The notes below the pieces were generated by a model. It saw only the letters and a program-made list of their open reading frames with translations. It was not told where the DNA came from and made no database searches. A stretch of 64,000 bases of DNA from contig JAJFGG010000011.1 of assembly GCA_021776235.1 (NCBI GenBank), positions 38,248 to 102,247 on the forward strand, in the 5' to 3' direction. This document shows, in pieces, positions 13,967 through 19,781 of the stretch; the stretch's first letter is position 1; each line of letters opens with the position of its first letter. The stretch is from Alphaproteobacteria bacterium (lineage in GTDB: Bacteria > Pseudomonadota > Alphaproteobacteria > GCA-2731375). The position numbers were made by a program, and so were the translations under genes.

Positions 13967-14730
13967 GCATCCACCCGGACGAGCGCCCCGACCACGCCAT
14001 GGCCGATGTCCTGCGTGCGCCTCTCATTGGGCTGGATCATACCCAGCGCATCAAATTGGCGCTTGCGATCCGCTTTCGTTATACCCGCCACCGCGATAGC
14101 CGCTGGATAGACCGGCATAGCCACCTGATAGAAGAAGAAGACCGGATCTGGTCACGCCGGATTGGTCAGGCCCTGCGTCTTGCCCATACCCTTTCGGGTG
14201 GTGTTACAGGGTTATTGGCGCAATATTGATTGCAGCTGAATGGGCCCGGCATCACTCTGTACTGTAAACCGGGAACCAGACATCTGATTTGTGAAGCGGC
14301 CGGCAAACGCCTTACCGCCATGGCGCGAAGCTTTGAGCAGCAGGCCCGCATCGTCTCTGAATGATCTACATACTCTAATGCTTGGGTGAAAGAGTCGGCT
14401 TATGTAGAGCCAAGCAACACCCGCACAGCCGTATCCCAGGAGGCCGCGACATTTTCCTGCCCGACATGACGGCAGATTGGAAGATTATGGAAATATTTTT
14501 TACTGAATAGAGTGGTTAATGTGACATAAGTGATTGGTTCAATTGCTCTGTTTATCGAGGCCCTAGGCGCATTTAGACTAAACACTCGATAGGGCGACAG
14601 ATGCATACAACAAGAAATTCACAAAAAATTAAATGAATACCAGTAAAAATGCGGTGAGCAAAAATATCAATGTTCCAAGTATAGCTGTATCTCTTTTCTG
14701 CTATTGCCGTTGCTCCACCGGAGATCGAAC

Positions 14731-16392
14731 ATGAACTTGCGTGCGAAACTGATTGCCGGTAGTGCGGCTGTCATTCTGTTCACGGCTTTTCAGGGCATGA
14801 TTGCCATCAACCGTATCGACCAGACGGGGCGGCTGGTTAGTGAGTTATATAATGGTCCGTTAATGGCGATCAATTTCGCCCGCTCCGCCAAGGCCAGCTT
14901 TCTGCTGCTCGACCGTGAGATGACGGTGGCCGCCGGCAAACCGGCCCTGTTGGCCTCGGAAGACTTTGTCGAGGCATTGACCGATCTGTATGAAAGTTTT
15001 CGCGGGGACCTCGAGGTGGTGCTGGAGCGGAGCGAGGATGACCGCCTCGTCAACGACCTGAACGCTGCTGGTGCCATGGCCGACCGATGGTGGAGTCTGA
15101 GCGAACAGGCGATTGCCTCGTCCGAGGGGGGTGAGGCCATGATCCCAATCGACGAATTGCGCGAAGTGGCGGTATCAACGGACGGCCAATTGGACCTGAT
15201 TATCGAATTTGCCATCGAAAACGGTTTCGATTTCGACCTCTCCGCCGAGCAGGCGGTCGCCGAAACGCGGCGTTTTACCATTTTGGTCATAATGGGCACG
15301 GTGGTTATCGGTTTTCTCATCGCTATGGTTCAGGGCCGGATGATCAGCCAGCCCGTAACCCGGATGACCCGCCGCATGGTGGCAATGGCCGCCGGCGACT
15401 ACGCTGTCGAGATTGAAGATCTCACCCGGCGCGACGAGATTGGCGAAATGGCCCGGGCGCTGGCGGTGTTCAAGGAAAATGCCCTGGATAAGGAACGCCT
15501 GGAGGCCGAGCAGGCCGAAGGTGAGCGTCGGGCCGAAGAGCAGAAGAAGACCATGATGGCTAAACTAGCGGACACGTTCGGGGCGACCATCGGCGGGGTC
15601 GTCAATACGGTCTCGGCCTCTGCAGTCGAGATGGGCGACACCGCCGTCAGCATGGCCGGCAACATGGACAAAAGCGGCAGCCGCTCTTTGGAGGTGGCCG
15701 AGGCCGCCAATCGTTCCCAAGGCAATGTCGCGACCGTTGCTTCCGCGACGGAAGAGCTGGCGAATTCGATCGATGAAATCGGCAGCCAGGTCGAGCGCTC
15801 GGCGACAAGAGCCGGCGCCGCAGTCGAGGAAGCCGACCGCTCGAACGAAACGATCAATGGTCTGGCCGGGGCGGTCGACAAGATCGGCGACGTTGTCGCG
15901 CTGATCAACGGCATCGCTGGCCAGACCAACCTGCTGGCGCTCAATGCAACCATCGAAGCGGCCCGCGCCGGCGAGGCCGGCAAGGGCTTTGCCGTGGTTG
16001 CATCCGAGGTTAAGAACCTGGCCAATCAGACCGCGACGGCGACGGAAGAGATCGCGCATCAGATCGACGCGGTACAGGGGGCGACGGGCGACGCGGTGGC
16101 GGGCATTGAAGGGATCGGCAGGACGATCCGTCAGATGAGCGAGATTTCCGCCGAGATCTCCGCTAGAGTGGAGCAGCAGCGTGCCGCGATTGGTGAAATC
16201 GCCCGCAATGCAAGCGCCGTCAGCGACGATGCCACATCGGTCTTGCACAGCGTTACCGAACTGTCGCAATCCTCGGCCATGTCCTACGGCGCCGCCATCA
16301 ACGTGCTTTGGGCCTCGCAGGATATACAAAAACCCATGGCCGAACTGCGCGGCAGCGTGGAAACCTTCCTGCAGGACGTTCGCACTGCCTGA
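14731..16392 (+). CDS. Methyl-accepting chemotaxis protein (chemoreceptor) with periplasmic helical sensor, HAMP and signalling domains
   Basis: Start at ATG 14731 (GGAG 7 nt upstream; the track uses TTG 14704). Signalling domain [44 protein letters not shown]. Two TM segments. Confidence 0.9.
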
Positions 16393-16655: not shown

Positions 16656-18323
16656 TCAGACAGCGCGGATCTTCTGCAGGAACTGGTTGATCTGGCTGTC
16701 CAGATCCGCCGAATGCTGAAGCAGGCCGTCAGCTGCGCCCAGGACTTCGTGTGTCATCTCGTTGGTCCGGCTAACCGCCTCGGCGACCTGACCCATGCCG
16801 GCACCGACTTCGCGCGTGCTATCCGCCGCGCGCCGGACGTGACGGCTGATCACATCCGTGGCCTCCGCCTGCTGTTCACCAGACTGGGCAATGGCGGAGG
16901 CGTTCTCGTCCAAAGTCTCAATGGTACCGTTGATGCCGCGAATGGCCGCGACGGTTTCTTCGGTCTGGCTTTTTATGACAGCGATCAGGGCATCAATCTC
17001 GTGCGTGGAACCGGCGGTTTGATTGGCCAGGTTTTTCACTTCCCCCGCGACCACGGCAAAGCCTTTGCCTGCCTCGCCCGCCCTGGCCGCCTCGATTGTC
17101 GCGTTCAAGGCCAGCAGATTGGTTTGACGGGCAATGTCGTCGATAAGGCTCACCACCTGACCGATTTTTCCCACTGCTTCGTCCAAACCGCCCACTTTCG
17201 CGCTGATTTCCCGCGCTGCCGCGACCGCGCCACCGGTGACGTTGGCTGAATTCGATGCCCGGTCTCCGACTTCACGGATGGAGGTGGTTAAGCCTTCGGC
17301 TTCGCTGGCAGCCGATTGCACATTCTCGGTCGCCTGCTCGGCCGCCGTCGCCACGGAGTCTGATTGCTGAGAGGTCTTTCGCGCGGTGTCGTCCAGGCCG
17401 GCAGCTATCTCGCGCATGTGACCTGACGCTTGGGAAATTGCCGCCGCGACCTGACGGATCGTAGCCTCGAATTCGGCAGCTATTCGCTCTCTGGCTTCAC
17501 GACGTTGTTCGATGGCCAGTGTCTCAGCCCTAACCTGTTCGCCCTGCAGGCGTTCGACTTTCAAGGCATTTTCCCGGAACACGTCAATGGCACGGGCCAT
17601 ATCCCCCAATTCATCACTCTTCTCGCGGTAGGGAATCTCGCCATCGAAGTCACCCTCCGAAAGCTGTGTCATGCGGCTGGATATGGCATTCATGGGGCGC
17701 CCAAGATAACGACTGATCATGAATACGATGACCATCCCAAGAGACAAGACAAGCACGGCACCGATGATCTGTATGTTCAGGGTTTGCTTGGCGGCGGCGT
17801 CGGCATCTTCGCGGAAGTTAAAACCCTGTTCAGTGGTAAATTCGACCAGCAAGGAAAGGCTTTCCTCGGCCTCGGATAACAACGCTTGTTTCTCGGCCTT
17901 CAATATATCCGCGGCAGCGGCATCGGAAATGTCCGCCGCGATAATCCGCTCGGCCAATACATGCCATTGTTCTAGCAACGCCAGGGTTTCGTCAATTACC
18001 TCCCAAATCTCCTGGTCCGCGACCCGCTCTCGGACGACCGCAAGATCGTCGCGGATCTCACTTTCCAATTCGGCGGCAGCCTCCTGGCGTTCCGCCCGCA
18101 AATCGGTGTTGGCGGTGAAAAGGATCTGGGTTATCTCGCGATCGCTGCGGACAAAATTGGTCAGGGCGTTGCGCGCGAAACTGATCGATAACAATGGCTT
18201 ATCATACATTTCAGCGGTCAGCAGGCTGACCCGCAACAGGCCATCCATGGCAAATCCGCTTGCAACCGCAGTCATCACAACCACACTCGCCACACCGATA
18301 ACAAGTTTGTTTCCAATACGCAT
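16656..18323 (-). CDS. Methyl-accepting chemotaxis protein; paralogue of 14731..16392; last gene of the P460/cupredoxin cassette
   Basis: [47 protein letters not shown]-terminal sensor domain similar to that of the convergent chemoreceptor ([20 protein letters not shown] versus [20 protein letters not shown]). Confidence 0.9.
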
Positions 18324-18348: not shown

Positions 18349-18705
18349 CTACTTGGTTATCACAACGGTTAATTTCATCTTCGGATGCAAAGCGCACAGA
18401 ATAACGGCGGTGCCTGCGTTTTTGATCGTCACCGAGTCCCGATCTCCGGGCTTTTGCTTCTTGATCTTCAGGTATTTGAACCCGGCGGACTTGCTGTAAA
18501 CATTGTGGCGCTTGCGCTTTTCCTCGTTGACGAAAGTCAGGGTATCGCCAACCTTGGCGTTGACTTTTTTTGGCACAAACTTTTTACCCTTTTGGGAAAT
18601 GACAATGTCCGCGGCCACGGCTTCGGTTGTGAACAATGTTCCGGTCATGCATAGGGCAACCAGGGTGATGGCTGGAACCAAAGTTTTGATATCAAACTGT
18701 CTCAT
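18349..18705 (-). CDS. Amicyanin/pseudoazurin-like blue copper protein (cupredoxin), periplasmic
   Basis: Signal peptide. Type-1 copper ligand set: His in RHNVYS, and Cys-x2-His-x2-Met in CALHPKM (compare the amicyanin CTPHPFM motif). Start ATG overlaps the upstream gene's stop (ATGA), suggesting translational coupling. Confidence 0.75.
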   Translation of the reverse strand: MRQFDIKTLVPAITLVALCMTGTLFTTEAVAADIVISQKGKKFVPKKVNAKVGDTLTFVNEEKRKRHNVYSKSAGFKYLKIKKQKPGDRDSVTIKNAGTAVILCALHPKMKLTVVITK

Positions 18706-19781
18706 TTCGCACCTACCCGGTATTCGTCCGCCATAAACATCATGAAGTCGTCGTCGTCGGCGCGCATATGGCAGTCGTTACAAAATTTCTGTATGCCCTG
18801 ATCGGCGCGGACCATTCCGCTGGGCATAATCATGGCATAGTGCCAGCCGCCTGAATCAGGCAAGGCACCCTGTTGTTTCTTTTCCATGATGAATAACGGC
18901 CCGACGCCGTTGCGTCCGTCGTGATGCTGGACGAAGCCTTCCTTGGCAACGATCGAACCTACGGGCATTTTGCTCAGATCCTCGTAGTTCCGATAGACCG
19001 GCGCGGCCACGGCGTTGGCGTAGTTCAACAGATAACGGGAGCCGTGCGCCTCCGCCGGATAGGGACTGATGCTAAAACGCATCCAGCCACGGAATTCCCT
19101 GGCCACGGGATTGTCTGATTTCAAGTAAGCCCGGCGGATATCATCTTTCAGGCAGTCATAAACAGCCGAGGCCTCCGCGTCCGTTAGCATGGGTGGTTCG
19201 ACGGCACATGGATTGGCCCCGCCGCAGGGATTGCAGGGGTTGCAGGCCTTTTTGGCGGCGCAGGGATTGCACGGGCCGCACGCCTTCTTGGCGGCGCAGG
19301 GGTTGCACGGGCCACAGGCCTTCTTGGCGGCGCACGGATTGCACGCGCCGCAGGCCTTTTTGGCGGCACACGGGTTGCACGCACCACAGGCCTTCTTGGC
19401 GGCACACGGGTTGCAGGCGCCGCAGGCCTTCTTGGCGGCACACGGGTTGCAGGCACCACAACCCTTTTTAACCGCGCAAGGATTTGCTGCCGCTTGTTGC
19501 AGACGCGGCACCAGGCATTTGTCCGAGCCTTTGCCAGCGGCGCATGGGTTAGAGGCACCGCAGGGATTACAGGGGTTGGTGGCCTTGCGCGGACCGCACG
19601 GATTGCAGGCACCGCATTTCGCGGCCAGCCGCAGGGCTGTTTTCGGCAATGCCGTCTGATTGACCCCTGTGGCTTGTCCCGGCGCTTTGGCTGCCGACGC
19701 GCCCTCAAGCGCAAATGGCAGCGAAGACAGGGCCAAGGGAATCATGACAGAGCCCAAAAGTCGTGCTTTTCTATTCCTCAT
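18702..19781 (-). CDS. Secreted fusion protein: signal peptide, then about 8 tandem 12-aa Cys-rich repeats (NPCAAKKACGAC), then a C-terminal cytochrome P460/c'-beta-like haem domain (CNDCH)
   Basis: The repeat region has about 30 Cys as overlapping CxxC motifs. The C-terminal ~150 aa (…GWMRFSI…YRNYEDL…GSIVAKEG…GPLFIMEKK…GGWHYAMIMPSG…FCNDCHMRADDDDF) has the P460-like layout, with the single CXXCH near the C-terminus. Family call by pattern only. Confidence 0.65.
   Translation of the reverse strand: MRNRKARLLGSVMIPLALSSLPFALEGASAAKAPGQATGVNQTALPKTALRLAAKCGACNPCGPRKATNPCNPCGASNPCAAGKGSDKCLVPRLQQAAANPCAVKKGCGACNPCAAKKACGACNPCAAKKACGACNPCAAKKACGACNPCAAKKACGPCNPCAAKKACGPCNPCAAKKACNPCNPCGGANPCAVEPPMLTDAEASAVYDCLKDDIRRAYLKSDNPVAREFRGWMRFSISPYPAEAHGSRYLLNYANAVAAPVYRNYEDLSKMPVGSIVAKEGFVQHHDGRNGVGPLFIMEKKQQGALPDSGGWHYAMIMPSGMVRADQGIQKFCNDCHMRADDDDFMMFMADEYRVGAK
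19243..19460. repeat. Tandem 36-bp DNA repeat, about 6–7 near-identical copies, inside the CDS at 18702..19781
   Basis: Units such as ggccttcttggcggcgcacgggttgcacgcgccgca are repeated head-to-tail with a few SNPs. All six track frames show periodic pseudo-ORFs here (AFLAAQGLHGP… etc.). Confidence 0.85.

Follow-up and report, generated by a model that had tools for sequence, protein, structure and literature searches.

Does the regular array of 36-bp units within a bacterial gene record a recent burst of DNA duplication, or an older peptide whose repeats have been kept alike by selection? The question is raised by a tandem array on the minus strand of a 64,000-nucleotide stretch of an Alphaproteobacteria bacterium (GenBank assembly GCA_021776235.1, contig JAJFGG010000011.1, positions 38,248 to 102,247), the whole of which is referred to below as the window. 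A preliminary description, made from the sequence alone, had placed a near-perfect array at 19235-19470 and attributed it to recent expansion or concerted evolution. We find that the periodicity of this DNA is almost wholly the footprint of a conserved peptide repeat combined with codon bias, and that the repeats, as that description had overlooked, form the N-terminal half of a cytochrome P460-family haem protein.

Age of the 36-bp array

The array itself is real: Tandem Repeats Finder reported it with a period of 36 at 19242..19451 (5.8 copies, 89% matches, no indels, score 308), and its rows at periods 72 and 108 describe the same array. Read in codon register on the minus strand, it consists of seven 12-codon units at 19224..19475 (residues 103-186), which encode AVKKGCGACNPC, AAKKACGACNPC three times, AAKKACGPCNPC twice and AAKKACNPCNPC. 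These units follow the pattern C-x2-C-x2-C-A-A-K-K-A, carry a net charge of about +2 each, and make up the main part of what we call Cys-rich arm 2, whose degenerate end, GGANPCAVE, is read from the translation at 19197..19223 (minus strand, residues 187-195). The peptide proposed earlier, (NPCAAKKACGAC)n, its frame and the count of six to seven units all hold in this register, and the earlier coordinates fall short by about 10 bases at the low end and by 5 at the high end.

That the minus-strand frame is the true one follows from the ratio of non-synonymous to synonymous differences per site between units (pN/pS about 0.1), from more than 1000 homologues in the same frame, and from the continuity of the repeats with a signal peptide and a haem domain; on the same grounds a non-coding or wrong-frame repeat is ruled out. 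Four of the array's five other frames are free of stops and the fifth has a single stop at the edge, and four overlapping open reading frames of 92-176 aa are listed there, in keeping with the earlier remark that the periodicity produces phantom reading frames.

The array deserves to be called near-perfect for its peptide and not for its DNA. Adjacent units are 78-92% identical at the nucleotide level, and mean identity is 87% among the five core units and 81% among all seven (full range 64-92%). Among units 1-5, third codon positions account for eight of the nine variable columns, and the ninth is an Ala/Pro change. Comparison between units gives a pN of 0.061 and a pS of 0.63, the latter to be set against a pS of 0.54 between the haem domain and that of the closest known orthologue, L001, with which it shares 89% amino-acid identity in that domain.

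To gauge how much likeness the peptide alone imposes, the seven peptides were held fixed and synonymous codons were drawn at random from the window's own codon usage. Arrays recoded in this way had an identity of 0.776 +/- 0.015, as against 0.813 observed, a value reached by 1.25% of simulations. The fraction of identical codons at same-residue positions falls from 0.68 in neighbouring units to about 0.4 in the most distant ones, where codon usage would give 0.49 and comparisons between genomes give 41-55%; a weak trace of common descent is thus left among the units. Because synonymous divergence within the array is at least as great as that to the closest orthologue, and because identity lies near the recoding expectation, the array is old: it grew by tandem duplication or saw occasional local exchange, and purifying selection on the peptide keeps its units uniform. 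A recently expanded or homogenised array would consist of units that are near-identical even at synonymous sites, and the synonymous-site analysis and the recoding simulation together rule out fresh duplication, so that the proposal of recent expansion or concerted evolution finds no support in the window array.

Among relatives of the gene, unit number does change. A Rhodospirillaceae metagenome-assembled genome (MAG), L013, and its counterpart L170 are 98.0% identical over 2431 bp, and their arrays, which are orthologous to the window's, differ by two indels, each of exactly 36 bp; the remaining units of L013 are hybrids of two flanking L170 units, which argues for unequal recombination or slippage between units. 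L012, L087/L088 and L171, which are 99.9-100% identical, hold three length alleles of the other arm (arm 1, below) that differ by 9, 51 and 60 bp, and clusters formed at 90% protein identity include lengths of 268, 286 and 310 aa in one case and 356 and 376 aa in another. Unit number therefore differs between close relatives by unequal recombination or slippage, with the qualification that these variants come from short-read assemblies, in which repeats can be misassembled. All of the length differences are in frame, as had been anticipated from a unit of 12 codons. The comparison of copy number that had also been proposed yields variation in two sister lineages, while for the window lineage the genome and metagenome scans gave no near-identical strain, the best identity to the window gene being 74-79%.

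Length alleles among relatives that are 98-100% identical, together with a longest exact direct repeat of 32 bp inside the window array, might be taken as signs of a hypervariable contingency locus, i.e., a site of frequent mutation by which the protein would be switched or tuned within populations over short periods. We consider this improbable: the window's own units are only 64-92% identical with synonymous sites close to random, a unit that is a multiple of three makes on/off switching impossible, near-identical strains of this lineage are lacking from the collections searched, and some of the variants seen elsewhere may be errors of repeat assembly.

The repeat arms and their haem domain

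The array lies within a gene at 18702..19781 on the minus strand (359 aa plus TGA) that is present in the list of open reading frames, matched by 1065 homologues and preceded by a GGGGGAA ribosome-binding site 6-7 nt before its ATG. The protein begins with a predicted Sec-type signal peptide (19692..19781, residues 1-30), with a basic RNRKAR segment, a hydrophobic core and a cleavage site between ASA and AK that was inferred by reading the translation and not computed; residues 1-30 of the translation hold neither a twin-arginine motif nor a lipobox, and the N-terminal region that includes them is conserved in homologues. The earlier placement of the array within a gene for a secreted cysteine-rich protein is thus supported. 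Beyond the signal peptide, the translation and the homologues delimit Cys-rich arm 1 (19542..19616, minus strand, residues 56-80, CGACNPCGPRKATNPCNPCGASNPC), which is short in this genome and far longer in many homologues, and between the two arms stands a conserved central motif (19476..19541, minus strand, residues 81-102, AAGKGSDKCLVPRLQQAAANPC, with the core ..SDKCLVPRLQQAA..) that is recognised from homologues and from the AlphaFold model. The arm region of the window protein contains 30 cysteines among its 141 residues (21%) and lacks F, Y, W and H.

The C-terminal part of the protein (18705..19196, minus strand, residues 196-359) forms, by Pfam, AlphaFold and Foldseek, a domain of the cytochrome P460 / c'-beta fold. 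PF16694 scores 31.4 bits against a cut-off of 27, and the top 22 Foldseek matches in the PDB are all P460 or c'-beta structures, led by 7EAD (E 7.7e-7, target TM-score 0.69) and followed by 6HIU, 7S5O and 2JE2. On the basis of its predicted fold and its single C-terminal CXXCH, we place the domain within this family. The haem c attachment motif CNDCH lies at 18768..18782 (minus strand, residues 334-338), and its C334, C337 and H338 are invariant in 100 sequences.

Whether the domain is a P460 or a c'-beta depends in part on a lysine. Lys280 (18942..18944, minus strand), also invariant in the 100 sequences, falls by profile alignment at the position of the P460 haem-lysine cross-link: remote alignments (E 0.003-0.04) set it opposite Phe61 of the T. 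thermophilus c'-beta (TtCP-beta) and opposite a Met of the N. europaea c'-beta (NeCP-beta), and Table 2 of PMC11928373 equates these c'-beta positions with the cross-linking Lys70 (NeP460), Lys78 (McP460) and Lys106 of P460s. Judged from such distant alignments, the domain is probably a true P460 rather than a c'-beta. Glu300, which at least 90% of sequences retain, is a candidate for the distal carboxylate that NH2OH oxidation requires; it aligns with Gly82 of TtCP-beta, and the NeCP-beta alignment puts the distal-carboxylate position (Glu96 in NeP460) six residues further on.

An AlphaFold2 model built with 100 homologues gave predicted local distance difference test (pLDDT) values above 90 for the haem domain (residues 195-359), of 84-91 for the central motif and of about 40 for the arms. 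The central motif has the fuller form KC.[VI]PRL..AA; its pattern C.[VI]P[RSK][LMVI] occurs in 220 of 227 family members, and its cysteine goes together with a lone cysteine at the start of the haem domain, both being present in 216 proteins and both absent in three, with eight discordant. This co-occurrence and the high pLDDT of the motif suggest that the central KCLVPRL segment probably docks on the haem domain, perhaps through a Cys89-Cys210 disulfide.

Two other functions for the arms were discarded. Additional haem sites are ruled out since the arms of the family contain no CXXCH motif and almost no His, and a periplasmic Fe-S domain of the ferredoxin-like CxxCxxC type is ruled out by a signal peptide that lacks a twin-arginine motif. 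The attachment of c-type haem relies on Sec export of the unfolded protein, which likewise argues against an Fe-S domain.

The whole protein has 1065 homologues at E <= 1e-3, in a search that scored only the 8000 candidates with the most words in common with it. Relatives occur in 392 stretches of the GTDB species-representative genome set, and those listed are almost all marine Alphaproteobacteria, including Rhodospirillaceae MAGs (from Saanich Inlet and the Arabian Sea), Sneathiella, Kiloniellaceae, Hyphomicrobiales and Hoeflea. Across the family, arms are 52-574 residues long, contain 6-47 N-P-C triplets with a median of 22% Cys, and are rich in Lys, Ala, Gly, Asn and Pro; 118 of 146 arms have no His at all. 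The family unit has either 12 residues (CGACNPC or CNPCNPC followed by AAKKA) or nine, and its N-P-C triplet is nearly invariant. Because the parity of the cysteine count is unconstrained (even in 115 and odd in 112 of the 227 proteins), the family has no fixed all-disulfide fold.

The repeats also occur apart from the P460 domain. At 42 loci a stand-alone mini-protein consisting of a signal peptide and repeats (89-260 aa, e.g., L168:7438-7764) adjoins the P460 gene, and a search with the arms alone recovered mainly mini-proteins of 73-165 aa, one stand-alone repeat protein in a Gammaproteobacteria MAG, and three mono-haem cytochrome c fragments (P0191, P0246 and P0139, with CNSCH or CQTCH, and PF21342 and PF03150 on record) that end in a C-terminal N-P-C tail. 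The arms are, then, a conserved and self-contained module. These cytochrome c tails represent a second haem fold that bears N-P-C repeats, and a further stand-alone repeat protein is P0233 (Denitrobaculum tricleocarpae FKG95_17325). In P0101 and P0120 a LysM domain is inserted among the repeats, a hint that some members bind peptidoglycan, and in P0126 (437 aa) the N-terminus and first arm of another paralogue are joined, within repeats, to an L087-type gene, which reflects either recombination between paralogues by way of the repeats or a chimeric assembly. Within the 64-kb window there is no second open reading frame with N-P-C repeats.

Arms whose length varies so widely between relatives, which are predicted to be disordered and carry about +2 net charge per unit, could be a passive spacer or stalk that sets the reach or spacing of the haem domain in the periplasm or adheres by charge to anionic polymers of the envelope, with its cysteines engaged in miscellaneous small disulfide loops. 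A spacer would not be expected to keep N-P-C and its cysteine spacing nearly invariant across more than 1000 proteins at a pN/pS of about 0.1, and the stand-alone repeat proteins have nothing to space; we therefore regard this explanation as very unlikely.

Public annotation tends to conceal the arms. Orthologues are often called from an internal Met as a 162-167-aa 'cytochrome P460 family protein' devoid of signal peptide and arms, and such start-shifted calls are seen in the P0002/P0003 orthologue clusters (P0121, P0122, P0129, P0130, P0132 and P0134). These truncated calls are a systematic mis-annotation caused by the repeat region. An exact look-up of the window protein in public assemblies gave no match, literature searches for the repeat peptide and for a P460 with a cysteine-rich extension returned nothing relevant, and those for P460 with a cupredoxin returned only nitrifier genome papers. 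Text searches of the 2025 superfamily review gave no mention of N-terminal extensions, repeats, fusions or multi-domain forms (PMC11928373). It thus appears that a large marine alphaproteobacterial branch, in which a Cys-rich repeat module is joined to a P460-family protein, has gone undescribed.

Gene neighbourhood and paralogous loci

Directly downstream of the P460 gene lies a gene for a 118-aa cupredoxin (18349..18705, minus strand; PF00127, E 1.6e-7) with its own signal peptide and an amicyanin-like C-x2-H-x2-M copper loop, the ATG of which overlaps the TGA of the P460 gene (ATGA). It is followed after 25 bp by a methyl-accepting chemotaxis protein (16656..18323, minus strand), which in Pfam has a 4HB_MCP_1 periplasmic sensor domain and HAMP. 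The cupredoxin occupies the same position, and the trio of P460, cupredoxin and chemoreceptor is syntenic, in every orthologue locus for which downstream sequence is available. Judging from this arrangement, the P460 gene is co-transcribed with the other two. Trio loci of relatives include L027, L040, L061, L123 and L132. Just beyond the operon, on the opposite strand, is a second methyl-accepting chemotaxis protein (14704..16392, plus strand, HAMP and MCPsignal). A scan of the window with Rfam returned nothing, and a scan for promoters and terminators did no better than on shuffled sequence.

Where more distant relatives retain the cupredoxin, the place of the chemoreceptor is taken by a histidine kinase of about 790 aa, the N-terminal ~260 residues of which are 25-29% identical to the chemoreceptor. 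By this sequence comparison, the haem protein and the cupredoxin travel with a sensor-type N-terminal region whatever its output domain, and the association suggests that they feed a periplasmic sensor.

The association with a chemoreceptor or a histidine kinase of homologous N-terminal region is one reason to consider that the arms act in thiol-disulfide exchange. Each CxxC (C-N-P-C or C-G-P-C), preceding a helix-prone AAKKA, would cycle between dithiol and disulfide, and the array would act as a periplasmic redox buffer, as a scavenger of reactive nitrogen or oxygen species that the haem domain produces or encounters, or as a redox input for the neighbouring 4HB (four-helix-bundle) sensor. 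C-G-P-C is also the motif of the thioredoxin active site, all units keep the CxxC spacing with Pro at +2, and the redox proteins that bear the module have two different folds, P460 and cytochrome c; moreover, MsrB adjoins the paralogous subfamily described below at 13 of 73 loci, and DsbA is near one locus. Unfortunately for this explanation, three cysteines per unit and an unconstrained parity leave unpaired thiols in half of the family, there is no thioredoxin fold, the window operon encodes no reductase partner, and AlphaFold gives the arms no structure. We judge redox cycling unlikely, if deserving of serious weight.

A larger sister subfamily is without the cupredoxin and has neighbours of a different kind. 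At the 73 sister loci with at least 3 kb of upstream sequence, a gene for an FGE-sulfatase-like protein (FGE being the formylglycine-generating enzyme) is present at 48 (within 1.5 kb at 46, and mostly divergent), DUF6969 at 49 and MsrB at 13. Both the FGE-like and the DUF6969 genes are seen, for example, at L168:5601-7191 and L169:6207-7807, with MsrB and a HAD hydrolase behind them at a smaller share of the loci. At 27 sister loci (e.g., L071:3145-4344) a membrane protein of about 388 aa is encoded upstream of the P460 gene, and its GG(S/G)CASGTLY motifs look, by eye, like those of a YeeE/YedE-type transporter of sulfur compounds. MAGs with an orthologue of the window gene also carry an FGE-linked paralogue cluster (L015, L024, L020, L043), and single MAGs can hold two or three repeat-P460 paralogues (L007/L015; L008/L024/L027; L013/L020/L035) that are cupredoxin-linked, FGE-linked and sometimes kinase-linked. 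The FGE-like gene and DUF6969 are both absent from the 64-kb window and from every orthologous, cupredoxin-type locus.

These neighbours raise the possibility that the arms are a substrate, the cysteines of which are modified by the FGE-sulfatase-like protein, possibly together with DUF6969, such that mature arms would carry formylglycine or cross-links. The C-x-P-x core of C-N-P-C resembles the C-x-P-x-R target of the formylglycine-generating enzyme, and an invariant Asn-Pro would fit recognition by an enzyme; the frequency of the FGE-like and DUF6969 genes at sister loci, and the FGE-linked paralogues in the MAGs that hold the window gene's orthologue, point the same way. The repeats, however, are missing the Arg of the FGE motif, and the cupredoxin-type loci, the window's included, are missing both genes. 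In addition, FGE-fold proteins have many roles other than that of FGE, the NCBIfam matches of these proteins being weak and spread over EgtB, SenA, GldK and PvdO, and literature searches on FGE in connection with cysteine-rich proteins, the periplasm or copper gave nothing relevant, as did those on DUF6969. We give this possibility little credence.

Proposed metal binding and likeness to known systems

The reading that we favour, tentatively and without rating it as probable, is that the arms are chains of thiolates, akin to metallothioneins, and bind soft metal ions within the periplasm, the number of units setting their capacity. Their composition makes the metal-binding role suggested in the preliminary description plausible. 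Once exported by Sec, the arms would be flexible chains whose metal capacity scales with unit number, and they would buffer or donate metal in the periplasm next to the haem domain, which itself, probably with a P460 lysine cross-link, would pass electrons to the cupredoxin. Because the cupredoxin is translationally coupled, Cu(I) is the first candidate metal; Zn or Cd is possible.

This reading is suggested by the composition of the arms, by their want of His and aromatic residues, by the CxxC and CGxCxxC motifs, by the predicted disorder and by the unconstrained cysteine parity. Metallothioneins are marked by 15-30% Cys, CxC or CxxC motifs and the absence of aromatics and His, and the window arms, at 21% Cys, fall within these bounds. 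Since metallothioneins fold only upon metal binding (PMC7558416), the pLDDT of about 40 fits chains that acquire structure only with their ligand.

Several observations weigh against metal binding. In the oxidising periplasm, DsbA would be expected to oxidise the thiols of the arms; known periplasmic copper ligands are mostly Met and His; and the near-invariant Asn-Pro before Cys exceeds the needs of a simple thiolate sponge, suggesting a specific local structure or recognition by an enzyme. The nearest conserved neighbours of the sister subfamily are the FGE-sulfatase-like protein, DUF6969 and MsrB, with no genes of metal homeostasis among them, and the arms match neither the bacterial metallothionein family SmtA/BmtA nor any NCBIfam model (Pfam E <= 0.1, NCBIfam).

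A broader view of the locus, speculative and in our estimation rather unlikely to hold as a whole, is that the N-P-C repeats are a new secreted bacterial cysteine module (either a periplasmic metallothionein or an FGE-modified polymer) that has been recruited repeatedly onto c-type haem proteins, and that in the window operon the P460, the cupredoxin and the 4HB chemoreceptor form a periplasmic device for sensing a nitrogen-oxide, redox or metal signal. Hydroxylamine is turned into N2O and NO by cytochromes P460, most work on which has concerned nitrifiers and methanotrophs. Of the related MAGs, many were recovered from waters that are oxygen-deficient or stratified, such as Saanich Inlet, the Arabian Sea and the Black Sea, and several of the closest stem from the first two of these. 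In the marine alphaproteobacterial branch found here, a conserved lysine aligned with the cross-link position is combined with Cys-rich arms that resemble no bacterial family known to bind metal. Should the arms bind metal, they would represent a modular, metallothionein-like type of secreted bacterial module, one for which we found no description; should they instead be substrates of an enzyme, a new cysteine modification would be indicated. The association with a cupredoxin and with a chemoreceptor or kinase suggests a sensory role for a protein of the P460 fold. In practical terms, public annotation often cuts these genes to the haem domain alone and so hides their architecture.

How, then, does the protein compare with systems that are already known? 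The C-terminal 164 residues share the beta-sheet fold of N. europaea P460 (2JE2/2JE3), M. capsulatus P460 (6HIU) and T. thermophilus c'-beta (7EAD), with Foldseek E-values of 7.7e-7 to 1e-4, and they likewise share the C-terminal CXXCH and export directed by a signal peptide; the invariant Lys aligns with the cross-link position, and the nearly invariant Glu may lie at or near that of the distal carboxylate. The window protein differs from these in having only 13-23% sequence identity to them, in belonging to an operon with a cupredoxin and a sensor, and in coming from marine Alphaproteobacteria (the marine origin being inferred from its closest relatives). Moreover, the characterised members that the 2025 review lists have a single domain, with solved chains of about 135-160 residues (PMC11928373), whereas the window protein has a Cys-rich repeat extension of about 165 residues.

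As to the repeats, they resemble the in-frame coding variable-number tandem repeats of bacterial surface and secreted proteins in that the unit is a multiple of three and that length alleles arise among close relatives by unequal recombination, but the window units are diverged at synonymous sites and are not near-identical copies of DNA. In CXXC-type zinc fingers (PF02008), the C-G-x-C-x-x-C motif supplies three of the four Zn ligands, and the same motif is found in the arms. The likeness is one of motif and composition only, the eukaryotic DNA-binding context being unrelated: PF02008 scores 16.7 bits on the window protein, below the cut-off of 26.5, and 31.4 bits on the longer homologue P0006, in which no single stretch passes alone. 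The Cornifin and zf-CXXC matches that Pfam reports in homologues were set aside as driven by composition.

Modular, multi-domain metallothioneins are exemplified by Cmt1 and Cmt2 of Cryptococcus and by those of snails. With metallothioneins in general, including SmtA/BmtA and MymT (PMC7558416), the arms share a cysteine content of about 21%, an abundance of Lys, a lack of aromatics and His, motifs of the CxxC type, a predicted unfolded state without ligand, and modularity; they differ in having no sequence homology to them, in being secreted rather than cytosolic, in being fused to a haem domain, and in their invariant N-P-C triplet, which metallothioneins do not show. The periplasmic copper storage protein Csp1 offers a parallel of another kind, as a cysteine-based exported protein that could store many Cu(I) ions for cuproproteins (PMC7558416). 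Csp1, however, is a pre-folded four-helix bundle exported by Tat, whereas the window protein has a Sec-type signal and repeats that are predicted to be disordered.

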